The notes below the pieces were generated by a model. The model was not told the DNA's origin and did no database searches. It saw nothing but the letters and a program-made list of their open reading frames with translations. Of a stretch of DNA of 64,000 nt, positions 42,910-57,405 are shown in pieces. The stretch lies in assembly GCA_963724765.1 (NCBI GenBank), contig CAVRVY010000001.1, forward strand, positions 416,001 through 480,000. Direction: 5' to 3'. The position numbers and the translations under genes are program-made. Each line of letters begins with the position of its first letter. The stretch's first letter is position 1. Source of the stretch: an uncultured delta proteobacterium (lineage in GTDB: Bacteria; Desulfobacterota; Binatia; Binatales; Binataceae).

Positions 42910-43100
42910 GGATATCCCCTTGACTTCGGCGGCTGATGCCGCAACCTTTGGTCAAATCGCGCAGTCATAGAAGCGTAGCGCCCGAGTTCATGTCAAGCGC
43001 ACTAATCCGCTTCGAGTCAAATTTGCTTGCCGCCCGTTCTTGCCTTGGCCGTTAGTCATGCGCTAGTTGTGCGATCCCAACGGCGTATGGAGAGAGCCTC

Positions 43101-43427
43101 ATGATTTATGAGTTACGCGTATATCATTGCGTTCCCGGCCGGCTTCCGGCCTTAATCAAGCGTTTCGAATCCGTCACCATGCGGCTGTTCGAGAAGCATG
43201 GCTTCCACCAGACGGGCTTCTGGACGGTCGCGATCGGAGAATCGAACCAGGATTTGATCTATATACTGCAATGGGAATCGCTCGCGGATCGCGAAAAGAG
43301 GTTCGCGGCCTTTCAGGCTGACCCTGAATGGATCGAGGCGCGCCGCAAGAGTGAAGAGGACGGTCCGCTGGTCGCGTCGATCAGCAACACCATCATGACG
43401 CCGACCGCATTCTCGGCGGCGCGATGA
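43101..43427 (+). CDS. NIPSNAP family protein
   Basis: IYELRVY..PG, F.ADPEW, P..FS. Confidence 0.9.
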   Translation: MIYELRVYHCVPGRLPALIKRFESVTMRLFEKHGFHQTGFWTVAIGESNQDLIYILQWESLADREKRFAAFQADPEWIEARRKSEEDGPLVASISNTIMTPTAFSAAR

Positions 43428-43617
43428 GGCCCTCGAGCCGAAATTGGACGCCCAGCCGCTGTACCCCGCGTTGGTGAGTACGACCAGCACTCCGCTTCAT
43501 CGGCGCGCCAGTTTTTTTATGACAAGAGAAACGGGCTTAGCGAATCGCGGCAGTTCCAGTTATGCGCCGCCGGCGTCTTTGCGCCCGATGCCAGTTCGCG
43601 TAGACTCCTGTGCGCAC

Positions 43618-43694
43618 GAGCCGTTAGCTCAGGCCGGTAGAGCATCTGACTTTTAATCAGAGGGTCCCGGGTTCGAGTCCCGGACGGCTCACCA
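43618..43694 (+). tRNA. tRNA-Lys(TTT)
   Basis: GAGCCGT/ACGGCTC stem, CTTTTAA loop, GTTCGAGTC, CCA. Confidence 0.97.
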
Positions 43695-43761
43695 CCTAAC
43701 CCTAAGAAATCAAAGAGTTTTTCGAGCGTACTGGGCCGAGTCGGCAAACGCCTGCAAGCTG

Positions 43762-43782
43762 TTAGGGCACAATTAGGGCACA
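43762..43782. repeat. 10-bp direct repeat, possible integrase arm-type sites
   Basis: TTAGGGCACA-A-TTAGGGCACA just downstream of tRNA-Lys. Confidence 0.55.
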
Positions 43783-43801
43783 GCTGACCGCCGGAAACGA
43801 C

Positions 43802-43847
43802 TGGAGCGGCTTGGATGGTTTGATCGAAGTTTAGGTATGGTTTGATC
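43802..43847 (+). repeat. Left terminus with two putative transposase-binding sites
   Basis: ATGGTTTGATC at 43815 and 43837 (22-bp period). Confidence 0.8.
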
Positions 43848-43949
43848 TGCCGCTTAAGGGGCGAAAACGGCCTCATTATGACCCTTGGAAACGACCCTCA
43901 AGGCCGCCAGCAGGAGGTCGCGAACTATAAGTGCAGCTTATCGAGTAAC

Positions 43950-44804
43950 TCATTGCGCCTTCAACTCATCAAGACGAGTCGGATTTTTCGCGGCCGCCGG
44001 CGCGATCCGCTCGACGGCGCGCGCGATCTCCGGCGCGGCGCTAGCCAGCTTCTCGGCCAAGGACTGTTCGGCCGCGTACTTGATGCCCGCGATACCTGGG
44101 TTATTCGCGAAGCCCGGATCGATGCCGACAGGGATTTCCGAAACAGCGCCAGTGCGCGGATTCTCATAGCTATAGGTTGGCGACGCCGGCGCGGCCGCGC
44201 GGAGCTGGTAGCCGTCGCGGTCGAGGTCCTTCTCGCCCAGCGAATCCGCATAGCACTTGCAATTCCATCCGTTCGGCGGATAGTGCGTGTCCCACCAGGG
44301 ATCGTTGGCGCGCAATACCGTGCCGCTCCAGTCCAGATGCTCCGGGCGCGGATGCGGGTCGGGATCGACATAACGCAGGTACGGCAGGATCTGTTTCGTG
44401 CGCTGCACCTGCGCCCATGAGCCGGCCGAGAGCGACGTGCGCAGATTGGTATCGTAGATCGTCTGCAGCCGGCGCACCGAACCGAGCTGGACCTCGCGCA
44501 CCTTGCCGGTGAGCGGGTCTTTCATCATCTGCCGTCCCCACCATCCCTTCGCGCGCAGAACGGGCTCGAGCGCATCGCGGAACTCCTCGAACGGGATACC
44601 CTCGGCGATCGCTTTGTCGACGGCGCCGCGGATGTCCTCGAGCAGGTCGACTGTCATCGCCTTTGCGACAGTGAAAGCGCGCGCGTGCTCGTCCTGCCAC
44701 ACGTCGCGCCAATCGAATCCGATCTTGAAGCCCTTGCGGCGGAAGAACTCGATCGCGTCTTCCGGCGGCAGCGCCGCGAACTCGAAGTCTCCGGCCGACG
44801 TCAT
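43950..44804 (-). CDS. Phage Mu gpF-like minor head morphogenesis protein
   Basis: AFTVAK, RRLQTIYDTN, RPEH, WW.THYPPNGWNCKC, IDPGF..NPG. Confidence 0.9.
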   Translation of the reverse strand: MTSAGDFEFAALPPEDAIEFFRRKGFKIGFDWRDVWQDEHARAFTVAKAMTVDLLEDIRGAVDKAIAEGIPFEEFRDALEPVLRAKGWWGRQMMKDPLTGKVREVQLGSVRRLQTIYDTNLRTSLSAGSWAQVQRTKQILPYLRYVDPDPHPRPEHLDWSGTVLRANDPWWDTHYPPNGWNCKCYADSLGEKDLDRDGYQLRAAAPASPTYSYENPRTGAVSEIPVGIDPGFANNPGIAGIKYAAEQSLAEKLASAAPEIARAVERIAPAAAKNPTRLDELKAQ

Positions 44805-45196
44805 GCGAGCACCTTCGCCGGGTCGATCGGAATCAGTAGGCAAATGTAATCGGGGTCGCCGACTAACCCGGCTCGGCTCGGATGAGGATCGTGAACGAGT
44901 CGCCCCTTGCGATAGACGACCGAGTGCTTCACCCCGCGCGGGCTATCGCCATGCGCCAGGTATAGGCAGTCGGGTTCGAGCACGAGCGATTCGCGCTGAA
45001 TCTCCAGCACCACGAATCCGCGACCGCGCAGGTATCGATAGAACATGCCCCAGAAACCGATTTCTTCGGGCGCCTCCTGGAAGTTTGGGACATCCTCGAG
45101 CTCAAGCTCTAGAATGCTGGCGACAGTCGCTTGCAGGCAGTTCCCTCTCGTGCCGGCGTCCTTGTCGTAGAAGCGATTCTGATCGACCGGCTTCAC
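44801..45196 (-). CDS. Putative papain/C39-like cysteine peptidase
   Basis: GTG start with GGAGG RBS overlapping the portal stop; GNC..A.VASIL, H.VV, HDP pattern. Confidence 0.55.
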   Translation of the reverse strand: MKPVDQNRFYDKDAGTRGNCLQATVASILELELEDVPNFQEAPEEIGFWGMFYRYLRGRGFVVLEIQRESLVLEPDCLYLAHGDSPRGVKHSVVYRKGRLVHDPHPSRAGLVGDPDYICLLIPIDPAKVLA

Positions 45197-46135
45197 TTCC
45201 TCCTCCGCTTGGCGATCGTCTTTCCCGGCACGCCGACCTGGCCGGCCACGTTGGCGTTGAAACACGCGTGCGCGAGCAGGTCCACCATTTTCGACAAGTT
45301 CATCTCCGGGACCGCCGCGACCGCTATCTCGAGCAGCTCCGGGTAGCTCGTCGCCGCGCGCATCTTCGTGAGCCACGGCCAGATGATCGGCGCCATCGCC
45401 TCATCCGAGTACTCGTCGCGCAGCTTCTCGACGAAGCGGTCGATCGCGTCCTGTCCCTTGCGCGCCGGCCGTGCTGCGTGGGCCGAGCGATTCGAGGCGT
45501 CATTCAAATCTCCGTCGACGTCGGTGAACGCACCGGCAAGACCCGGAGCGCCGATCGCCGTCGACGGCTCGGGACTTGGCGCCGGGGCTGGCGGCTTGGG
45601 TGCGTCGGTGCCCGCGATCTTCTCCACTGGATGCAGCATCGGCCGTGTATCGTCCGGGTCGGGTAACCCGAACTTATCCAGGATGGTCTTTTCGTTGACG
45701 CGCATCCCGCGATCGATGAACGTCTGCACCGACTCGGAGAAAAGTTTCAGGTCTTCCTTTTCAGGGTAGCCCAGCACGATCCGCGGATAGCGGCGCTTCG
45801 GTCCGATATTCAGATCGACAATCGGTTTTATCAGGTCGCGATTGAGCGCACCGCTCAGGCGGCGCGCATCGTCCTGGCTGAGGTCGCGGCGCACCGCATC
45901 ATGTACTTCGGCCGCCGCGCGCGAGCCGCTGCCGCGCGGAAGCTGCGTAGTCAGCGTCTGTCCCAGCACGCCGATACTCAGTTGCTTGTCGACGTACTCG
46001 CAGAATTGCTCGTACAGCTTCTCGCTCGCCGTGGTCTGCTTGTTCTCGATGAACTCGATCATCATCGAGTCCGGAATGATACACGCGGCGTCCGTGCCGA
46101 TATTGGTTACCGCGCGCAGCAGCGAGGACCTGCGC
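45193..46135 (-). pseudogene. Mu gp29 (DUF935) portal, 3' part only
   Basis: LLRAV.NIG.DAA.IIP..M.IEF, LGQTLTT, A.VH..VR; portal-like sequence ends near 46135 (approximate) where opposite-strand genes begin. Confidence 0.8.
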
Positions 46136-46161
46136 TGGGGTCGCATCGGATAATTGGGGTT

Positions 46162-46637
46162 ATGGCTACTCAGACCCAAAGGAACTGGACCGCGCATATC
46201 GTGGTTAGTTCCGAGCACGCTGGTCTGCGGCCGCATTTCAAGCGGCTTGAGGCCGAGCTGCTTCACGCGCTCGCGCGCATCGATGATCCTCGGATGGTCG
46301 CGAAATATCTAGACTCGCTTGTGACCACCAGCCGCGTATGGGTGAAAGCGCGCGAGGTCTACGCTTCGCGAAGGTGAGGTGATGGAGCTGCCGGTCTTGA
46401 TCGCTATTGGTCTGGCGCTTGGCACTGTCGCGTTCTACATCGATCAGTATCTGCGCAAGAAGTGAGTTTATGGAAGCGAGCTACGCAGCGGCCGAAATCT
46501 GGCGCCTCCATCGCGAGGGCCAGGACGTGGTGATCGAGGTGCACTCGCGCGAGCTCGACCGCTGGATCGAGCTCAAGCTGACCCGCGCCCAGGCGCTCAC
46601 CTTCGTGGTGGAGTTCGCGCGGGTCACTCGCGACTAA
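46162..46637 (+). CDS. Three small phage hypothetical ORFs (46162-46377, 46382-46465, 46470-46637)
   Basis: Closely packed ORFs with RBS-like sequences, typical of a phage semi-essential region. Confidence 0.5.
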
Positions 46638-46819
46638 AGGAAATTCGGTCGCCATGCAATCCCCGAAATATATTCCAGTGTTCACGATTCGATTGCCGCT
46701 GGCGGGCCAGAGCCTGGCCTTCATGGGCGACGCGCAGATCGGAGTCGATGGCCGCGTGCCGCGCGAGCTCATGATTAAGATGCTCGAGCACGCGGTGTCG
46801 GTGCTCAAGGGCAGAACTG

Positions 46820-47053
46820 ATGCTCGGTGCAGTCGACAAAGGATGCATCGTCTGCGGCGTGCGCGCGATGGTGCTCTGCCCCTCCTGCGAATCCGACTAT
46901 CAGAAATATCTCGCCGGCCGGAAACCGCGCGAAGGCACGCGCGCCGGCATGAGCAGCCAGCCGGTGAAATCTGGGCATCCCGCCAAGCCCTGGTCGCGCT
47001 TTCAATGGGCCGCTTTTCAGCGCACCCGCCGCGAACGAGGAGGCCGCAACTGA
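46820..47053 (+). CDS. Small CxxC...CxxC phage protein (overlaps ORF 46654-47070)
   Basis: CIVC...CPSC; ends next to the following gene. Confidence 0.5.
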   Translation: MLGAVDKGCIVCGVRAMVLCPSCESDYQKYLAGRKPREGTRAGMSSQPVKSGHPAKPWSRFQWAAFQRTRRERGGRN

Positions 47054-47054
47054 G

Positions 47055-47453
47055 ATGGCTGCGAGACTAATCGGCTTACGGGAGCGCCTGAAGAAATCCC
47101 TTGAAGGTCATCGCGTGGACCAAATTGCTGAAGAGCTGAAGCTTACTCCTTCAGCCGTATACGGTTGGCTGGAGGGGATGCGTGAGCCACGCTTGGAAGC
47201 ATTGAGCCGATTCGCGCTGGCTACTGGAGTTACCTTTGGATGGCTGGTGACCGGTGAGCGCCCGATGACTGGCTCAATTCCAATTCCAATGCTGCTCTGG
47301 TGCCCGCAGTGCCACGAACGCCATATCGACGCCGGCGAATTTGCGCACAAGTCCCATCACACACATGCCTGTCAATTCTGCGGCCACGTCTGGCGACCAG
47401 CGCTCGTTGAAACCGTTGGCGTTCAGTTTTTGCCGGGGTTCAAAGACGAATGA
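47055..47453 (+). CDS. XRE/Cro-like HTH fused to a Cys/His metal-binding domain
   Basis: IAEELKLTPSAVYGWLEG.REP HTH; CPQC...H..H..HAC..CGH.WRP. Confidence 0.7.
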   Translation: MAARLIGLRERLKKSLEGHRVDQIAEELKLTPSAVYGWLEGMREPRLEALSRFALATGVTFGWLVTGERPMTGSIPIPMLLWCPQCHERHIDAGEFAHKSHHTHACQFCGHVWRPALVETVGVQFLPGFKDE

Positions 47454-47540
47454 CAGCGAAACTCCAGATCGCATCCGACCTCGCGCTGGAGAGGCAAAAT
47501 GAACTGGCACAACAGTACTTTAGGCACATTCGGCGGAAAT

Positions 47541-48008
47541 ATGAACGCCAATAGCCAAATCGATTCGGCGATCGCGCGGCGCGAGCGGATCAAAGCGATC
47601 CACGTGCTGAAAAAGCAGCTCGGACTCGACGATGAGACCTATCGCCTGATGCTGCGCAAGATAACCGGCAAGGATTCGTCCGCTGCAATGAACTCCGGAG
47701 AGCATCGCGGCGTGCTCGACGAGATGCGCCGGCTGCTGAACGGCCATGCGTGGCCGTCCGCCCGCGTGCGGCCGCCCGGCGACGCTGCGGCGACGCCTGG
47801 CGCGGGGCAGCTCGCCAAGATTCGCGCGCTCTGGGCCGATCTGCGCGAGGCCGGCGCGCTGAAAGACGGCTCGGACCGAGGGCTCAGGCAATTCGTGCGC
47901 CGGGTCACCGGCCGCGACGCGATCGAATGGCTTTCGGCGGCCGACGCCAACAAGGTGATCGAAGGGCTCAAGTCGTGGCTGGCGCGGACTCGCGCGCCGG
48001 CCGCGTGA
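47541..48008 (+). CDS. gemA: Mu GemA/gp16 (DUF1018) family protein
   Basis: IHVLKKQLGLDDETYR..L...TGK.S, KIRALW, VIEGLK.W. Confidence 0.88.
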   Translation: MNANSQIDSAIARRERIKAIHVLKKQLGLDDETYRLMLRKITGKDSSAAMNSGEHRGVLDEMRRLLNGHAWPSARVRPPGDAAATPGAGQLAKIRALWADLREAGALKDGSDRGLRQFVRRVTGRDAIEWLSAADANKVIEGLKSWLARTRAPAA

Positions 48009-48059
48009 ATCGATACGCGGCGGATGTGGACGTGGCAAGGGGCGGGGGGAAAACCGTGG

Positions 48060-48392
48060 ATGTCGACATTCGACAGGCTGGTTGACGCGATCGGCCGCGC
48101 GGCGGCCGAAAAACTGGTCGAAGAATTTGGCGGACGGAGGATTTACGTGCCGGTGACGGCGGCGCCTGAATCGCCGATCGCGATGGCTATCGGAATTGCC
48201 GCGGCGCGTACTCTTTCGCGCATCTTTGGCAGCGAAAGACTCGACGTGCCGGCGAGAATGGGAGCCCTTCGCGAGCGTATCCTGCGCCTGCGCGACAACG
48301 GCAACGATGTTGATACTATTGCACGCGCCCTGCGATGTACCCGCCAGCGCGTTTACCAAATTCTGGGGAAAAATTTTACCCGTACAGAATAG
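48060..48392 (+). CDS. Mor/C family transcription activator
   Basis: IG..AA.KLV..FGG..IYVP and C-terminal HTH IARAL..T...VY.IL. Confidence 0.8.
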   Translation: MSTFDRLVDAIGRAAAEKLVEEFGGRRIYVPVTAAPESPIAMAIGIAAARTLSRIFGSERLDVPARMGALRERILRLRDNGNDVDTIARALRCTRQRVYQILGKNFTRTE

Positions 48393-48417
48393 GCGCTGCG
48401 ACGGCTACGCTGCCATC

Positions 48418-48936
48418 GTGGCTGTAATCTATCCAATTGGCTTTCAACGCGCTGTCGAGCGCGTGCTGCAGGACGAAGGAGGCTATTCATGCGTTCCTGG
48501 TGACCCGGGCGGCGAGACCAATTTCGGTATATCGAAACGGGCATATCCGAATCTCGATATCGCCAAGCTGACGCGGGACGAGACGATCGCGATCTACTGG
48601 CGCGACTGGTGGCATCGGTACGGCTTCGACCGCATCCAGAACGAAGCGATCGGCGCAAAGCTGTTCGACCTGGCGGTGGATATCGGTGCCGACCATGCGA
48701 TCAAATGTCTCCAGCGCGCGCTGCGCGCGTATGGCGTAGACGGGATCGTCGAGGATGGCATCCTCGGAACTGTGACGTTCAGCAAGACCAATAGCTGCAC
48801 AAATTGGATGGCCCTGCTGGTCGGCCTCAGATGCGAGGCGGCCGGCTATTACCGCACGCTCGCGCTCGAGCGCGGCCGGCGCAAGGATGGCGATCACGAA
48901 TTTCTCGAGGGATGGCTCAACCGGGCCTATGAGTAG
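48418..48936 (+). CDS. Endolysin, glycoside hydrolase family 108
   Basis: EGGY...DPGGET.FGIS, DG.LG, F..GWLNR; start uncertain. Confidence 0.9.
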   Translation: MAVIYPIGFQRAVERVLQDEGGYSCVPGDPGGETNFGISKRAYPNLDIAKLTRDETIAIYWRDWWHRYGFDRIQNEAIGAKLFDLAVDIGADHAIKCLQRALRAYGVDGIVEDGILGTVTFSKTNSCTNWMALLVGLRCEAAGYYRTLALERGRRKDGDHEFLEGWLNRAYE

Positions 48937-49237
48937 CGCCGCCATCCTCATCGTATTGCTCCTGCTGCTGCCATTGGCGGGATGCGCCGGAGTGCAGAAG
49001 AGAGACGCCGAGTATGCTTCGTGTCCCACGGGCAAAATCTGCGCATACGATATCCGAACCGGGAAGCATTGGTTTCAACGCGTCTTCAGCCAGCCGCATC
49101 GCGTGCTCGTGTATCGCGACGATAAGGGCGTTCTTCATCCGCCGATCGTTGAGGAGAGCCAGGGCGACATGCTGGAGGAAATGTCCGGACCGCTCAGCGG
49201 AATCGCCAGCCACGTCACGATTCCGGTCATACCGTAG
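48929..49237 (+). CDS. Phage lipoprotein
   Basis: Lipobox LAGC after a hydrophobic stretch. Confidence 0.65.
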   Translation: MSSAAILIVLLLLLPLAGCAGVQKRDAEYASCPTGKICAYDIRTGKHWFQRVFSQPHRVLVYRDDKGVLHPPIVEESQGDMLEEMSGPLSGIASHVTIPVIP

Positions 49238-49246
49238 GAAAAGCAA

Positions 49247-49549
49247 ATGGGCCCACTGAGTATCGATTGGCTATATCACCTGCTCGTGCCGCTGGCGATC
49301 GGATTCATCGCCGCCGTCTTCAACTGTATCGCGAAGAAACACGGCTTCTCGATGGATTGCGTATATGAGGGTGTCGGCTTCATGGGCGGCACGATGGGAC
49401 TTTGGTTGACGGCGCTGTTTCACACGCCGCCGGGCAAGGTGATGGTGCCGGCGGGCTCGGATGCGGCGGCGCAGGCGGCCAGGGATGCGCAGAGCGCGGC
49501 AAAAAAGGCGGCGGATGCGGGATCGAAGAATAGCGGCCTTAATTTTTAG
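49247..49549 (+). CDS. Putative holin or inner-membrane lysis protein
   Basis: Two TM segments, charged C-tail, within the lysis cassette. Confidence 0.5.
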   Translation: MGPLSIDWLYHLLVPLAIGFIAAVFNCIAKKHGFSMDCVYEGVGFMGGTMGLWLTALFHTPPGKVMVPAGSDAAAQAARDAQSAAKKAADAGSKNSGLNF

Positions 49550-49850
49550 CGCGCTATGCGCCGGATGCTCGCCGTCGCTGGTCTCGCTCAAGGGGACGAT
49601 GCCGCAGCTCGCGCCGCCGGCGCAGCCGTGCGGCGAGTTCGCGTTCCCGGAGCCGGACGCGATGCCCAAGGTTCCGGTCATTCATGCCGTGCGATGCCCT
49701 GGCTATGCCGCATGTTTCGACGCGGCGAACGCCGCCATGTTGCATCGCAAGATCGGCGCGCTTATGGCCGACGACGTCTATATACGCAGTTTGTATGCGA
49801 ACGAGGTTGCGGCGTACCGCAACCAGATCGATAAGGAGACCCGTCAATGA
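49515..49850 (+). CDS. Pro-rich lipoprotein, o-spanin-like
   Basis: Lipobox CAGC, Pro-rich, overlaps the preceding membrane gene. Confidence 0.5.
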   Translation: MRDRRIAALIFSALCAGCSPSLVSLKGTMPQLAPPAQPCGEFAFPEPDAMPKVPVIHAVRCPGYAACFDAANAAMLHRKIGALMADDVYIRSLYANEVAAYRNQIDKETRQ

Positions 49851-50383
49851 GTTTACTTTCAGGTATCGAGTCAGTCGCAGGCGACGTGCTTTCGGGGATC
49901 GAGGCGCTGATTCCTGTGCAGATGAAATCCGATCTGGGCGGTTTCGCCAGCACCGCGATCGCCGCCATCAAGCATGACGCGGCGGGCCTCGGAGCCGACG
50001 TCGGAGCGCTCGCGAAAGAGGATTTCGCCGCGATCTGGGCTGCAATCAGGACGACCGCGAGCAACGTCGTATCCGACCCGGTGCTCGCAACAGATCTTTT
50101 CACCGGGCAGGTTTCCGCCGCGGTTGCCGAATTGGGCACCGACGCGGCCAAGTCGCTCGTCCCCGCGCTGAAGGTGGTCGGCAAGAACACGTTGACCACG
50201 CTGACGAGCATGGCGGTGACGACGGCCAAGGCGGCGGCGAGCCAGGTGGTTGCCGCGGCGGCGCCGGTTATCGCGGACGTCAATGCGGCCGCTGCGACTG
50301 CCGCTCCCGCGGCGGCAGCTCCGGCTGCAGTGGCGGCAGCACCAGCAGCGGCGCCCTCAGCCACTCCAGCGTCGACCAAGTAA
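49847..50383 (+). CDS. Ala-rich phage protein
   Basis: RBS AAGGAG, ATGA overlap. Confidence 0.65.
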   Translation: MSLLSGIESVAGDVLSGIEALIPVQMKSDLGGFASTAIAAIKHDAAGLGADVGALAKEDFAAIWAAIRTTASNVVSDPVLATDLFTGQVSAAVAELGTDAAKSLVPALKVVGKNTLTTLTSMAVTTAKAAASQVVAAAAPVIADVNAAAATAAPAAAAPAAVAAAPAAAPSATPASTK

Positions 50384-50392
50384 GCTGCCGGC

Positions 50393-50686
50393 GTGGACTG
50401 GTCGAGCATCGGCGTATTCGTCGCGGCGGCGCTGAGCTTCGCCGGGCTGAACCTCGGCGCTCTCAAGTGGCTGCTCGATCGCCATGATTCCGCGGCCAGC
50501 AAAACCGAGGATCAGATCGCCGAACTGATCAAGGGTATGTACGAGCTGAGAGCCAATCTACCGCTTGAATACGTCAGGCGCGAAGATTGGCTCCGGTTCG
50601 GCGCGACGTTGGACGCAAAAATGGATGCGATGCGCGCCGAGATGCGCGAGTGGATTGCGGAGTTGAAAAGGACCAGCAATGTCTGA
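50393..50686 (+). CDS. Mu gp25-position membrane/coiled-coil protein
   Basis: N-terminal TM, LP.EYVRRED motif, position before the gp26/27-like genes. Confidence 0.7.
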   Translation: MDWSSIGVFVAAALSFAGLNLGALKWLLDRHDSAASKTEDQIAELIKGMYELRANLPLEYVRREDWLRFGATLDAKMDAMRAEMREWIAELKRTSNV

Positions 50687-50990
50687 CGCATTCGACCTCG
50701 AACAGAAGCAACGGGAAGCCGCGCGATGGCGCGTGCTGCGCGTGCTTGACGCAGGCCGTCCGATCGGCGTCAGCGATGCGATTATCTGGCGCGTGCTGAA
50801 CGATATCCAGATTCCCTTTTCGGTAAACCAGATCAGGCGCGAACTGACTTATCTGCGCGACCTTCGGCTGATCGAAATCGAGGAAATTGGATCTGACTGG
50901 ACCGCCAAGTTGACCGCGACCGGCGTGGACGTCGTCGAATATACAATCGCCGCGCCGCCCGGGATCGCGCGGCCGAAGAAATACTGGTAA
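50679..50990 (+). CDS. Mu gp26-like winged-helix protein
   Basis: RW..LR.L, RREL.YL, LTA.G.DV. Confidence 0.75.
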   Translation: MSDAFDLEQKQREAARWRVLRVLDAGRPIGVSDAIIWRVLNDIQIPFSVNQIRRELTYLRDLRLIEIEEIGSDWTAKLTATGVDVVEYTIAAPPGIARPKKYW

Positions 50991-50993
50991 GCC

Positions 50994-51524
50994 ATGCCGG
51001 CGCGCTCAAAAATCTCGCGCCTGCCGGAGGACATGCGCGGAAGGCTCAACGGGCGACTCATCGCGGGCGGATTCAGCGACTACAAGTCTCTCGCGCAGTG
51101 GCTGGCCGATGAGGGCTACGAGATCAGCCGATGCGCGGTGCAGCGCTATGGCGCGAAGCTTGAAGAGCGGCTCGAAGCGGTCAAGATCGCGACCGAACAG
51201 GCGCGCGCGATCGTCGAAGTCTCGCCCGACCGCGAAGGCGCGATGAGCGACGCGCTGATGCGCCTGGTGCAGGAGAAGTATATCGAGCTGCTCGTCGCGC
51301 TCGATACCGCCGACGTTGACGTGCTCAAGAAGATCGCGCATCCAGTGGCCAATATGGTGCGCGCGTCGGTTAATCAAAAGCGGCTGATGCAGCAGATGCG
51401 CGAGAAGCTTGCCGATCAGCTCAAGACCGCCGGCCAGAAAGTCGCCGAAGCTGCCAGCCAGGGCGGACTGTCTCCGGACGCCGAGAAAAAGATTCGCGAC
51501 GCGCTGCTGGATATTCGCGTATGA
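50994..51524 (+). CDS. DUF3486 / Mu gp27 putative small terminase
   Basis: RSKI..LP, ISR.AV.RYG, C-terminal GLS. Confidence 0.85.
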   Translation: MPARSKISRLPEDMRGRLNGRLIAGGFSDYKSLAQWLADEGYEISRCAVQRYGAKLEERLEAVKIATEQARAIVEVSPDREGAMSDALMRLVQEKYIELLVALDTADVDVLKKIAHPVANMVRASVNQKRLMQQMREKLADQLKTAGQKVAEAASQGGLSPDAEKKIRDALLDIRV

Positions 51525-51814
51525 GCAAGCTCGGGCCTTTCCTTCGCAAAGCTCAAGACCGATATCTGCACTTCTGTCCCGCCTGCGAAGAGGTGCATCC
51601 TATCGGACTGTCCTGGACCTTCGACGGCAATCTTGAAGCGCCCACCTTCGCCCCGAGCGTACGTCATACCATCTATCCGCTCAGTACCACGCCAGCGGCT
51701 CCGCGCATTTGTCACTACTTTATTCGTGCCGGGCGCATTGAGTTTTGCGGCGATTGTACGCATGAGTTCGCGGGCAAGATTGTACCGCTTGTGCCGCTAC
51801 CGGTGCCGCCATGA
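51521..51814 (+). CDS. DUF6527-like Cys/His protein
   Basis: CP.C...H, W.FDGN...PTF.PS, CH.FI..G.I.FC.D.TH. Confidence 0.65.
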   Translation: MSKLGPFLRKAQDRYLHFCPACEEVHPIGLSWTFDGNLEAPTFAPSVRHTIYPLSTTPAAPRICHYFIRAGRIEFCGDCTHEFAGKIVPLVPLPVPP

Positions 51815-53346
51815 GTGAACTGTCATCGGTGCTGCTGCCGTATCAGCGGAAGTGGATTGCCGACACCGCGCCGATCAAGGTCTACGAGAAATCCCGGCGT
51901 ATCGGTATCACCTGGAGCGAGGCGGCTGACTGCACGCTCACGGCGGCCGGGCGCGACGGGATGGATACCTGGTACATCGGCTATAACAGAGAGATGGCGC
52001 TCGAGTTCGTCGAGACGGCCGCCGGATGGGCGAAGCGGTTCAAGCGCGCCGCCGAAGCGATCGAGGAAGAAATAATTAAGGACGAGGATAAAGACATCCT
52101 CGCTTATCGGATTCGCTTTTCGTCCGGCCACAAGATCGTCGCGCTCAGCTCACGGCCGTCGAACCTGCGCGGCAAGCAGGGCCGCGCGGTGATCGACGAG
52201 GCGGCTTTCCATGAGGACTTGCCCGAGCTGCTCAAGGCAGCGCTCGCGTTTACGGTCTGGGGCGGCCGGGTGCATATCATCTCGACCCACAACGGCGCCG
52301 ACAACCCGTTCAATGAGCTGGTAACCGACATCCGCGCCGGCAGGAAGCCCTATTCGCTACATCGCACGACGCTCGACGATGCGCTCGGCGAGGGTCTCTA
52401 TCGCGCAATCTGCCGAGTGCTCAAAAGAGACTGGACCGGCGATGCGGAAAAAGAATGGCGCGCGCAGGTCTTCGCCGATTATGGCGACTACGCCGATGAG
52501 GAATTACTGTGCGTCCCGCGCGCCAGCTCGGGAGCCTTCCTGCCGTCGACGCTAATCGAAAGCCGAATGCGCGAAGAAATCCCGGTCGCTCGCTTCGACA
52601 TGACTGCGATGTCGATGACCTTTATTGAGCGCGGCCAGGACGCGTTGCGCCGGACGGCCGAGGACTGGTGCGAAGAGCATTTGAAACCGCTTTTAGGGCG
52701 GCTTAATACGGGCCTGATGAGCTGCTTCGGCGAGGACTTCGGGCGCTCGGGCGACCTCACCGTGATATGGACGTTGCAGATAGGCCAGGGGCTCATGCGA
52801 CGCACGCCGTTCGTGGTCGAGCTCCGCAACGTGCCCTTCAAGCAGCAGGAACAGGTCCTTTTCTACATCGCCGACCGGCTTCCGCGGTTCATTGCCGGGG
52901 CGATGGACGCTCGCGGCAATGGCCAGTACCTGGCTGAGCAGGCCGCGCTGCGTTATGGTTCGCGCGTCGAGCAGGTGATGCTCTCGACCGAGTGGTATCG
53001 CGACAATATGCCGCGCTATAAGGCCGCTTTCGAGGATGGCGGTATCGAGCTGCCGAAAGACGCCGACATCCTGGCGGATCATCGGGCGTTGGTGATGGAA
53101 CGCGGCGTGGCTAGGATTCCGGAGGGCCGGCGTGGCCGCGGTCACGATGGCGGCCAGCGGCACGGTGACTCGGCGATCGCCGGCGCTCTCGCCTTTTACG
53201 CCAGCACCCTCAACCCGGCGCAGTATGCCTACACGCCGGCGCCAGCGGCACGTCGTCGCGTCGATGAATCGGCGCCGGATGATGAAGAGCAGGGGCGTCG
53301 CGATCCATTCTGGCGTCGTCTGGGCGGTCGACTGCGTGCCAGCTGA
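51811..53346 (+). CDS. Mu gp28-like terminase large subunit
   Basis: LLPYQ, EKSRRIG.TW, IDEAAFH, IISTHNG, G.DFGR.GD, RHGDSA. Confidence 0.93.
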   Translation: MSELSSVLLPYQRKWIADTAPIKVYEKSRRIGITWSEAADCTLTAAGRDGMDTWYIGYNREMALEFVETAAGWAKRFKRAAEAIEEEIIKDEDKDILAYRIRFSSGHKIVALSSRPSNLRGKQGRAVIDEAAFHEDLPELLKAALAFTVWGGRVHIISTHNGADNPFNELVTDIRAGRKPYSLHRTTLDDALGEGLYRAICRVLKRDWTGDAEKEWRAQVFADYGDYADEELLCVPRASSGAFLPSTLIESRMREEIPVARFDMTAMSMTFIERGQDALRRTAEDWCEEHLKPLLGRLNTGLMSCFGEDFGRSGDLTVIWTLQIGQGLMRRTPFVVELRNVPFKQQEQVLFYIADRLPRFIAGAMDARGNGQYLAEQAALRYGSRVEQVMLSTEWYRDNMPRYKAAFEDGGIELPKDADILADHRALVMERGVARIPEGRRGRGHDGGQRHGDSAIAGALAFYASTLNPAQYAYTPAPAARRRVDESAPDDEEQGRRDPFWRRLGGRLRAS

Positions 53347-53415
53347 TGCCCGGCGAGGTGAGAGTATTTGCCACATCCGAAGCGGCGTCGGCCCGCGAAC
53401 CTAATTGAATCTCCG

Positions 53416-53781
53416 ATGTCGAAAAACAAGAAATCGAAACGCGGTAAGCTTTGGAAAGCGTCGCCGCTGCCTACAGATCAGCATCCACCGGCATGGCTGA
53501 ACGGCGACCTTCGAGGGCTAGATCCCGGCATCCGCAAAGCCGTCGAACGGCTCCAAGCCGAAGGGATCGAAACGTTCGAGTCCTGCGAAGGCGGCCCGGG
53601 GCACTCCTACCCAGAGCCGAGCGTCAGGTTTTACGGAACGCCCGAAGCGGGCTGGCGCGCTGTCGGTGTCTGCCTAGCCTACGGGCTGCCGATCCTGTTC
53701 CTGCGGCGCATCTGGTCCATACTGGACGGCAACGAGCCGAACGGACCGCATTGGGAAATCGTATTTAGAGCACGCAATTAG
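53416..53781 (+). CDS. Hypothetical protein (LD.GI...V..L...GI.T..SCEG motif)
   Basis: Open ORF after terL. Confidence 0.65.
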   Translation: MSKNKKSKRGKLWKASPLPTDQHPPAWLNGDLRGLDPGIRKAVERLQAEGIETFESCEGGPGHSYPEPSVRFYGTPEAGWRAVGVCLAYGLPILFLRRIWSILDGNEPNGPHWEIVFRARN

Positions 53782-53951
53782 CCCAGCTTGATGCACTCAT
53801 CGCAGCGCGGCTTGCCCCCGGTCGAGTTGCGAATGAGGTGTTGTGGCTTAATGCGCTTCCCATATGGGCAATCGTCGTGATCGTGGTAAACGTTCCGGTG
53901 GCTGGGCGGATACTCCATCGAGTTCGTATGATACGAGGCTACCTTGGCCAT
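53778..53951 (-). CDS. Small His/Cys metal-binding protein
   Basis: RBS AGGAGG; YH....C..G...C..C. Confidence 0.6.
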   Translation of the reverse strand: MAKVASYHTNSMEYPPSHRNVYHDHDDCPYGKRIKPQHLIRNSTGGKPRCDECIKLG

Positions 53952-54036
53952 CGTTCGTGCCTCCTGGTAGAAGCGATTCTTATGACCTTGCCAGCGACAT
54001 TTCGAAGCGAAATCACCCATTTCTTGAGTTTCAAGT

Positions 54037-54151
54037 TAGTTTAAAGTTAGGAAATTGCGAAAATCACGTAACTATATAAATTATCAGCGATTTTTTGTAA
54101 CTTTAAACTCGATCAGGCAGTTGGGGATGGTTTGATCTTTAGTTTAAAGTT
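54037..54151. repeat. AT-rich region with three AGTTTAAAGTT copies
   Basis: Copies at 54038 (+), 54099-54109 (-) and 54141 (+). Confidence 0.8.
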
Positions 54152-54320
54152 CGCCGGATTGACATCTGAATGCTTGCGTTAGCGACGGTAAGCGACGACG
54201 CAAAATTAAGGACCCTCCGCCCTCCTGAGCTCCCATTCGGTTGCCGAAAACCCTGAATAATCCTTTTGTTCGGCGCATAAAGGCGCGGCAAGGCTCGCCT
54301 CATCTCGGTTGCCCCGGAGA

Positions 54321-54344
54321 GATCAAACCATCCCGTTCCCCCCA
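54321..54344 (-). repeat. Right terminus of the Mu-like element
   Basis: Reverse complement TGGGGGGAACGGGATGGTTTGATC aligns with left end TGGAGCGGCTTGGATGGTTTGATC; an extra internal copy lies at 54125-54137. Confidence 0.85.
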
Positions 54345-54675
54345 ACGACGCTCAGACCAGCTTATCACCGCTCAGGCAGTCGAGATTCCGGCGGGAAGTT
54401 CCCGACCGCAGTCTCTTAATTCCGACAGCATTCGATTTTGAGCGGCGGGGCCGGGTGATTATCGCGATGGGGGTGTAGATAAATACTGGTACCACTCGGT
54501 ATCAATGCACTCACGCGACTGAAGGCCACCAAGCCCGCGTTCGCCAAGGCTTGATCCGTATCGAGCGCAACCAAGTGCGCGGGCTCATCGTATCTGTCAC
54601 CAAAGCACTGGACATCGTTCGGAACGCATCTGCCTGAGGCAATCAGGGCGGCGCTCGGCCAAGGAAGACCCAGAA

Positions 54676-54954
54676 GTGGAATATCGTCTACCCTTTGGGG
54701 GTCTGGCGTTCTACGAAGACGCCCTGTTGGACCTTTTTCAGAAATACCCGCCGTCGTCTTCCCTGATCTCGGTCACGATTCACGAAGCCGGCAGGGGCGT
54801 GGGCACCTATACAGTCCATCACGCGTGGCCACCAGGCAGCTGGAGCGCTGCCGACATCGCCAAGTTTATCGCTCGCAAGATCTGGCAAGCGTATACAGCT
54901 CACGCCAGGCAGGCGTTTGATAGCGTGACGATCGAGTTTTCGACGTCCGGTTGA
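54676..54954 (+). CDS. Hypothetical protein
   Basis: ORF with AAGGAAG upstream; no family recognised. Confidence 0.4.
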   Translation: MEYRLPFGGLAFYEDALLDLFQKYPPSSSLISVTIHEAGRGVGTYTVHHAWPPGSWSAADIAKFIARKIWQAYTAHARQAFDSVTIEFSTSG

Positions 54955-54959
54955 CCTTG

Positions 54960-55135
54960 GCGGCAGCGCGCAGCTTGCGCTCGGGGATCTTGCGCGCGCC
55001 TCCTCGACTACCAGCTTCGACCGGCGTTGCACCCTCGGCCACCATCGCCCGCTGATCGTCGCTCAAGTTGCGGGGCCGAGTTGGTTCTCTTCGATCCCCA
55101 GCTTGGCGAGCAGGGCCTTGCGCGCGAACTCGCGT
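54960..55135 (-). pseudogene. Fragment of a phage/ICE ParB-like protein
   Basis: Manual translation REFARKALLAKLGIEENQLG, frameshift, RNLSDDQRAMVA resembles the W...NQLGRRNL...QR motif. Confidence 0.5.
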
Positions 55136-57331: not shown

Positions 57332-57405
57332 GAGCCGTTAGCTCAGGCGGGTAGAGCATCTGTCTTTTAATCAGAGGGTCCTGATTCGAGTCCCGGACGG
57401 CTCAC
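57332..57405 (+). pseudogene. Degenerate full-length copy of tRNA-Lys(TTT)
   Basis: Near-identical to 43618-43691, with a D-loop C>G, an anticodon-stem A>T and a broken T-stem (CCCGGG>CCTGA). Confidence 0.88.

Follow-up and report, generated by a model that had tools for sequence, protein, structure and literature searches.

A 10,543-bp element in the genome of an uncultured bacterium of the family Binataceae (genome G000) is, with a probability that we put at roughly 85%, a defective and rearranged remnant of a BcepMu/Mu-like prophage, and most likely an ordinary and immobile one. It lies in a 64,000-nt stretch of contig C1 (positions 416001–480000), referred to here as the window, whose own numbering is used for all coordinates given without a contig name. 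The element starts with TG at 43802–43803 and ends with CA at 54343–54344, and the 5-mer ACGAC stands directly outside both termini (43797–43801 on the left, 54345–54349 on the right), forming a target-site duplication. The odds of a 5-bp agreement by chance are 1/1024, and a duplication of 5 bp (or 6 bp) is among the marks of a Mu-like insertion named in PMC8705779. The same coordinates had been proposed in an earlier interpretation made from the letters and translations (the sequence-only reading), and we recovered them exactly.

The two 24-nt termini are identical at 18 of 24 positions, including the TG and a 13-mer, GGATGGTTTGATC. Allowing at most one mismatch, copies of this 13-mer were found at 43813 (+), 43835 (+, one mismatch), 54125 (+) and 54321 (−). 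At the end that we designate R (43802), the second, one-mismatch site GTATGGTTTGATC begins at 43835, 22 bp inward of the first, while towards the opposite, L end (54344) an exact copy at 54125–54137 (+) is oriented against the terminal site at 54321–54333; the end alignment, the paired site and the extra copy had all been pointed out before and were reproduced here. Exact GGATGGTTTGATC occurs only four times in the 5,415,031-bp genome, three times in the element and once on contig C4, and a reversed-pattern control gave zero; matches with up to three mismatches (298 in 1.2 Mb) were disregarded. The end pattern is real and chance is excluded, giving the element the TG..CA termini and imperfect inverted repeats, with putative transposase-binding-type sites, of a Mu-type insertion. 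In Mu itself, such end sites are laid out as L1–L3 and R1–R3. In the 378-bp stretch before the L end, four copies of AGTTTAAAGTT (54027, 54038, 54099 on the minus strand, and 54141; four in the window versus 0.05 expected) surround the internal inverted end-type site, and by its position this region looks like the operator/early-promoter region of a Mu-type phage.

Open reading frames (ORFs) of the element were compared with Pfam and PHROGs profiles, resulting in the following features.

43797..43801, no strand: left ACGAC target duplication (sequence).
43802..43999, +: R-type end segment with TG terminus and two transposase-site-like repeats 22 bp apart (43813–43825, exact; 43835–43847, one mismatch).
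43950..44843, −: gpF (Phage_Mu_F), 297 aa (PF04233, E 2.4e-16; phrog_220, E 1.9e-87).
44801..45196, −: small gene phrog_5845 between portal and gpF, start placed at the portal stop (E 3.2e-33; in the 191-aa ORF 44801–45376, the match begins at residue 57).
45193..46182, −: portal, C-terminal fragment only (Portal_Mu profile positions 180–336 of 336); the ORF continues to 46266 through foreign sequence.
46183..46377, +: probable 3' fragment of an early gene cut at joint 46182/46183, judged from the reading frame (no family match).
46383..47053, +: small early-region ORFs, namely a 27-aa membrane peptide, a 55-aa ORF, the start of a 138-aa ORF (46654–47070; no Pfam/PHROGs family match) and a 77-aa Cys-rich ORF.
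47055..47453, +: HTH_3 (helix-turn-helix) regulator of Ner/repressor type with Cys-rich C-terminus (PF01381, E 7.9e-7; phrog_2328).
47499..48008, +: GemA (PF06252, E 3.9e-32, profile 1–119 of 119).
48024..48392, +: Mor-family late/middle transcription activator (PF08765, E 5.7e-9; phrog_836, E 3e-21).
48196..48936, +: GH108 endolysin with PG_binding_3 domain (PF05838, E 3.7e-20; PF09374; phrog_315); translation probably begins near 48410, past the end of Mor.
48887..50383, +: small ORFs, some encoding a lipoprotein box or a membrane segment (candidate holin/spanin genes), together with a 178-aa ORF rich in Ala (from translations; no family match).
50393–50686, +: gp25-like gene (phrog_462).
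50679–50990, +: gp26-like gene (phrog_436).
50994..51524, +: Mu Gp27/small terminase subunit, terS (PF11985, E 2.2e-40, profile 1–172 of 173; phrog_426).
51521..51814, +: DUF6527 gene (Pfam).
51811..53346, +: large terminase subunit, terL, 511 aa, full length (phrog_2, E 3.1e-37).
53400..53966, no strand: 567-bp cassette of two convergent genes, 121 aa (+) and 57 aa (−), 100% identical to C1:269823–270389.
53967..54344, −: L-type end segment with terminal site 54321–54333, inverted internal site 54125–54137, four AGTTTAAAGTT and CA terminus.
54345..54349, no strand: right ACGAC target duplication (sequence).

The Mu-type families GemA, Mor, lysis, Gp27, terL, portal and F are all represented, with their order broken by an inversion and the portal reduced to a fragment. 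Matches were obtained for every gene that the sequence-only reading had named as open (GemA, Mor, GH108 endolysin, gp25/26/27-like, terL and gpF), the closest cultured phages being BcepMu-like (terL 58.9% identical to BcepMu gp28, and 69% to a copy on contig C2 of the same genome). Its statement that packaging and lysis were kept was borne out for terS and terL, which are intact, and for the endolysin, which is open, but packaging as a whole is only partial as the portal is broken; gpF proved to lie on the minus strand opposite terL, and the adjoining C-terminal portal fragment had gone unreported. Even at E ≤ 10, the region 43000–55000 gave no trace of transposase, MuB, protease, capsid or tail genes, the tblastn queries including the transposase, B, protease and capsid of the reference phage G061; these genes had already been described as unrecognisable, correctly so except for the repressor, where a gene of HTH repressor type is present (47055–47453).

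Compared with BcepMu-/Mu-like phages (Bcepmuvirus; coliphage Mu), the element therefore shares TG..CA termini, repeated terminal sites, a 5-bp duplication and the gene set GemA, Mor, endolysin, gp25/26-like, Gp27 terS, terL, Mu portal and gpF, but it measures 10.5 kb instead of the 36–39 kb given for Mu-like phages in PMC8705779 (BcepMu, 36,748 bp), and contains an inverted early-to-terL block, a truncated portal and a foreign 567-bp cassette. It has neither the DDE transposase (A) and ATPase (B) by which a Mu-like prophage is recognised, nor the length and head and tail modules of a complete one. Relative to BcepMu and to G061 (97% complete, 38,057 bp, TG..CA ends), it is missing the L-proximal region with the repressor, other early genes, transposase and B, as well as gene G, protease, capsid, sheath, tube, baseplate and fibres.

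The clearest sign of rearrangement is gene orientation. In the element, terL (+) and gpF/portal (−) are on opposite strands and face each other, whereas terL and portal are colinear in the C2 region of the same genome, in 18 of the 18 relatives with both matched on one contig, in all four relatives examined in detail, in 6/6 viral or metagenome-assembled genome loci with both genes, and in BcepMu. Portal homology begins abruptly at 46182; what aligns from there on are residues 282–464 of the C2 portal (471 aa) and residues 260–553 of the G061 portal (558 aa), and the N-terminal ~280 residues are gone, with no such piece found in 43000–55000 at E ≤ 10. On the plus strand, the frame across the joint ends at 46377 and looks like the C-terminus of a small early protein (no family match). 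Both genes meeting at 46182/46183 are cut, as expected of an illegitimate inversion, and no repeat was found at this joint. Which part was turned around can be read from the ends: in G061, the motif is present twice at the R end (positions 20 and 42, 22 nt from each other) and once at the L end (position 20), an asymmetry shared by the element (two sites at 43802, one terminal site at 54344), so that 43802 corresponds to the R end and 54344 to the L end. Since portal, phrog_5845 and gpF natively point to the R end, what was turned around is the 7.2 kb between 46183 and ~53399, which begins with the cut early gene and ends with terL.

On the L-end side, this block is followed by the 567-bp cassette, which begins 53 bp past the end of terL; both of its borders are sharp and fall exactly at ribosome-binding sites. 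The two ORFs scanned here, the 137-aa one containing the 121-aa gene and the overlapping plus-strand ORF 53864–54079, matched nothing in Pfam or PHROGs. The unit could have been taken up as filler when a break was repaired, or it could be a small mobile cassette. Its second copy on C1 sits in an island of low third-codon-position GC content (GC3), beside ORFs of 343 and 1009 aa.

Public sequence data allowed us to examine some of these joints outside the assembly. Parts of the element occur in 13 public runs from nine studies, and we used Logan contigs of four of them (X1, X2, X4 and X7), representing four studies of sediment, soil and peat metagenomes; the observations rest on 32 of 310 pieces, and one run may be the source of the assembly, so the contigs are not fully independent. 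Among the matches listed, contigs of 250–813 nt with a depth of 2–6 and 0–1 differences occur all along the element and its flanks, indicating that the same strain was present in those samples. An X7 contig (43912–44279) bridges 43999/44000 and an X2 contig (53370–54182) bridges 53966/53967, both without differences. Three contigs begin at 53370, 30 nt before the cassette, as expected if the cassette is also repeated in those samples. One X4 contig matches up to 53399 and continues with 255 nt of unlike sequence, and one X7 contig matches up to 43999 and continues with 23 nt of unlike sequence; neither continuation is found in the assembled genome. Such contigs are as expected if a less deleted relative shares these habitats, and they place two breakpoints with single-base precision. 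Further contig joints with short sides (21–42 nt) were left uninterpreted.

The X7 continuation also bears on the end of gpF. At 297 aa, this protein compares with 278 aa in BcepMu gp30, whose residues 1–257 align with it at 42% identity, and with 385–474 aa in four more distant relatives. Read on the gpF strand, the X7 contig that leaves the window left of 43999 completes the junction codon and then shows a stop. The native end of gpF is thus probably at the joint 43999/44000, with the last 15 residues representing read-through into end-proximal DNA, and gpF would be essentially intact, its last codon marking the beginning of the right-hand deletion.

These contigs are also relevant to the idea that a full prophage was collapsed or mis-joined during assembly, an outcome that the sequence-only reading had suggested checking by read mapping. 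The cassette, as a 567-bp exact repeat, is a possible point of mis-joining, there are alternative continuations at 43999 and 53399 in the metagenome contigs, and bridging was obtained for two internal joints and not for the inversion joint among the contigs listed. Nevertheless, matching outer 5-bp duplications would not survive a mis-join, the short-read contigs cross 43999/44000 and 53966/53967 unchanged, no repeat able to mislead an assembler exists at the inversion joint, and the assembled genome contains neither of the alternative continuations. We therefore regard an assembly artefact as highly improbable.

The structure would be explained if a ~37-kb Mu/BcepMu-like transposable phage had inserted between tRNA-Lys and the Tad-pilus cluster, duplicating ACGAC, and if its interior had later been wrecked with both ends staying in place. 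In a series of events whose order and number we infer, a segment reaching from an early gene into the beginning of the portal gene would have been inverted at 46182/46183. The L-end-proximal region (repressor, A and B) would have been lost together with the N-terminal portal piece, its place being taken by the 567-bp filler copied from, or shared with, the other chromosomal site (joints 53399/53400 and 53966/53967). A further deletion, starting at the last gpF codon (joint 43999/44000), would have removed gene G, the tail-fibre genes and all that lies between them. What is left are the two ends, the operator-like repeat cluster, and intact GemA, Mor, lysis genes, terS, terL and gpF, with about three quarters of the genome lost, the transposase included.

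The early promoter was probably lost as well. A promoter scan of the element gave three sites versus 2.8 expected, which is no evidence either way; none of them precedes the GemA–terL block, and one (54107–54080, minus strand) falls in the operator-like region. In Mu, late transcription requires a cascade that begins at the early promoter. With the GemA–terL block separated from its native upstream region and without a promoter-like site ahead of it, the remaining genes are therefore probably silent, and their intactness would reflect recency rather than function. Having no transposase of its own, and with none found in the genome, the element is most likely immobile.

The search for a helper was carried out in several ways. 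PF02914 had no match in the genome nor in 41 genomes, a result uninformative by itself as the control was positive nowhere; PF09299 had no match in the genome, but the same profile did match in two of four related records, which serve as its positive control. Tblastn of the genome with G061 TnpA, a putative G062 transposase (593 aa, named from size and position only) and BcepMu gp09 returned nothing at E ≤ 1e-3, and B-type queries (a 414-aa ORF of G062 and BcepMu gp08) produced only weak AAA-type matches with 23–31% identity. No transposase-bearing Mu-like prophage that could serve as a helper was thus found in this genome.

Further copies were equally lacking. Blastn of the element against the genome recovered only the element itself, the cassette and the ~70% identical genes on C2. 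In 60 relatives (which include the unpublished genome G033, on which no claim rests), the best DNA matches to element genes were 69–72% identical and no copy was seen, the 10.5-kb unit being absent from other sites and from all 16 congeners searched. No empty site was found; the flanks (100 bp on the left, ~900 bp on the right) are strain-specific, being unconserved in the 60 relatives and 16 congeners, and in relatives the NIPSNAP/tRNA-Lys side and the Tad side are on different contigs. The exact end sequences had zero matches in IMG/VR, and gpF scans found no close relative (best identity 57% in IMG/VR and 51% in JGI metagenomes). A terL scan of genome contigs yielded four loci at 46–64% identity. 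The nearest homologues are 69% identical in protein, with synonymous sites saturated. One 84-kb IMG/VR contig (L078) matched a degenerate two-site pattern and was rejected, as it carries an unrelated iteron-like array without protein or DNA similarity to the element. Its dense GGATGGTTTGATCC and GGACGATTTGATCC repeats in both orientations (L078:11860–12060) show that this motif type is used by other elements too.

These results bear on the view favoured in the sequence-only reading, namely that the element is a satellite mobilised in trans. Stated as a natural mini-Mu, it would be a non-autonomous, transposable unit, for which a superinfecting phage of the parent type supplies A and B in trans, and which is packaged by headful together with neighbouring host DNA in the manner of engineered mini-Mu. 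PMC8705779 describes engineered mini-Mu elements that keep the capacity to transpose, and in our element the termini, repeated sites and operator-like cluster near the L end are intact; moreover, the X4 and X7 contigs, from peat metagenomes, diverge exactly at two deletion joints, as if a less deleted relative were present in the same habitats. Engineered mini-Mu requires A and B in trans and can mediate transduction. By analogy, infection of the host by a parent-type phage would amplify the 10.5-kb unit through the action of the phage transposase on the intact ends, and headful packaging from the L end would take along ~25 kb of the host DNA next to it, with the Tad pilus genes and tRNA-Lys, a natural 'mini-muduction' that we consider very unlikely. 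If true, the laboratory mini-Mu would have its first counterpart in nature, and host genes could be transferred locally by this means; no natural Mu-type satellite is described in the titles and abstracts of the literature found on defective Mu-like prophages and mini-Mu.

However, the genome contains one copy of the element, no other was met in the 60 relatives or when IMG/VR and the JGI metagenomes were scanned, the genome has yielded no transposase, and the truncated portal, cut early gene and inverted block look like accidents rather than design. The architecture does not recur in several genomes or sites. A natural mini-Mu is accordingly very unlikely, and the favoured satellite interpretation, possible in principle with both ends intact, gained no support from any of the searches suggested for it (second copy, other insertion site, genome helper, empty site, packaged copies in viromes). 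The alternative that had been offered beside it, a decayed prophage, is what the inverted 7.2-kb block, broken portal, cut early gene, copied filler, single copy and missing transposase argue for.

Like engineered mini-Mu and mini-D3112, the element combines two phage ends with a reduced interior, has no transposase of its own and could transpose only with functions provided in trans; it differs in being natural (formed by deletion and inversion), in keeping late genes and in showing no sign of movement after the deletions. With phage satellites of the P4, PICI and PLE types it shares small size, absence of capsid and tail genes, and possession of packaging-related genes, but genes for an integrase, replication or helper hijacking are lacking, its architecture was not found conserved in other genomes, and its portal is broken. 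Cryptic or 'grounded' defective prophages resemble it in having lost mobility and structural genes by internal deletions and rearrangements with neighbouring genes left open, and in being single-copy and strain-specific. What sets the element apart from these is that the termini and 5-bp scar are kept, delimiting the remnant to the base, because the parent was transposable. It is a well-delimited example of transposable-prophage decay through inversion, deletions and filler, in which termini and scar persist, and it carries a lesson for annotation: an element whose Mu ends are intact need be neither complete nor mobile.

The only other Mu-like genes found in the genome, on contig C2 (~247600–250500 and ~271800–286200; counterparts at G012:C8:96000–136500 and G001:C1:606000–651300), deserve separate attention. 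They comprise Mor, endolysin, gp26, gp27, terL and portal, and the cluster ends after the portal, without a transposase. In the congeners G012 and G001, a cluster of this type lies beside the same host genes, with a protease, capsid, sheath and tube cluster 15–20 kb away across host genes; the Mu-like set is genus-wide and split in two by host genes, the second cluster containing protease, capsid, sheath, tube and baseplate. Identities to congeners are 78–94% for terL and 80–90% for portal, versus 73–91% for flanking host genes; specifically, terL is 94%, 94% and 79% identical to G001, G005 and G012, compared with 89%, 89% and 85% for a neighbouring ligase-like gene. Being as conserved as the host genes flanking them at the same locus, the C2 genes fit vertical inheritance, and the cluster is a vertically inherited, domesticated one rather than an active helper. 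The whole system looks like a domesticated, possibly gene transfer agent-like, Mu-derived system, and this genus-wide transposase-less cluster is a more interesting lead than the element itself. DNA ~70% identical to the element terL is found in most genomes of the family.

Several observations weigh against decay as the explanation of the element. Every gene from GemA through terL is full length, which is the tidiness expected of a selected module, and two of the three deletion/insertion borders coincide neatly with the end of a gene (one at the final gpF codon, the other 53 bp past the terL stop), a number too small for testing tidiness. Both ends keep their repeated sites, so that mobilisation in trans is mechanistically possible, and the genome is 96.98% complete, leaving room for a transposase in the unassembled part. 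Among the matches listed, no contig spans the inversion joint or the outer junctions 43802 and 54344, which rest on the assembly. The first two points would also suit a module that the host has domesticated, keeping the Mor/lysis/terminase block, for example, for release or packaging together with the C2 cluster. We consider this very improbable, given that none of the 16 congeners searched has the element, that the C2 cluster already provides Mor, endolysin, terS, terL and portal, and that the block has lost its native upstream region, with promoter-like sites in the element at the expected frequency and none ahead of it. A decayed prophage remnant stays our preferred interpretation.

The insertion site lies between tRNA-Lys and the Tad-pilus gene cluster. 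The 13.6 kb between two near-identical tRNA-Lys(UUU) genes (43618–43694 and 57332–57405) contain the element, TadE/TadG-like pilus genes and ~900 bp of DNA particular to this strain; the ten ORFs tested included no integrase. A tandem 11-bp repeat, TTAGGGCACA-A/G, occupies 43763–43784, immediately before the insertion site, in the interval that separates tRNA-Lys from the R end. Within the R-end segment, the 22-mer 43878–43899 is similar (18/22) to the reconstructed uninterrupted target, spanning the insertion point; the likeness is probably due to chance (local-alignment score 24 versus a shuffle maximum of 30). A 17-mer identity of the reconstructed target to C1:1169987–1170003 was likewise taken as chance (E = 2.7).

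The fourth exact GGATGGTTTGATC copy of the genome belongs to a solitary 28-nt sequence at C4:1253904–1253931 (−), which agrees with the R end of the element at 26 of 28 positions, the agreement extending five bases past the 13-mer. Around it is a low-GC3 island that also encodes an Eco57I-type methylase, with no Mu-like genes or partner end nearby, and the sequence may be a relic of another insertion by the same type of phage.

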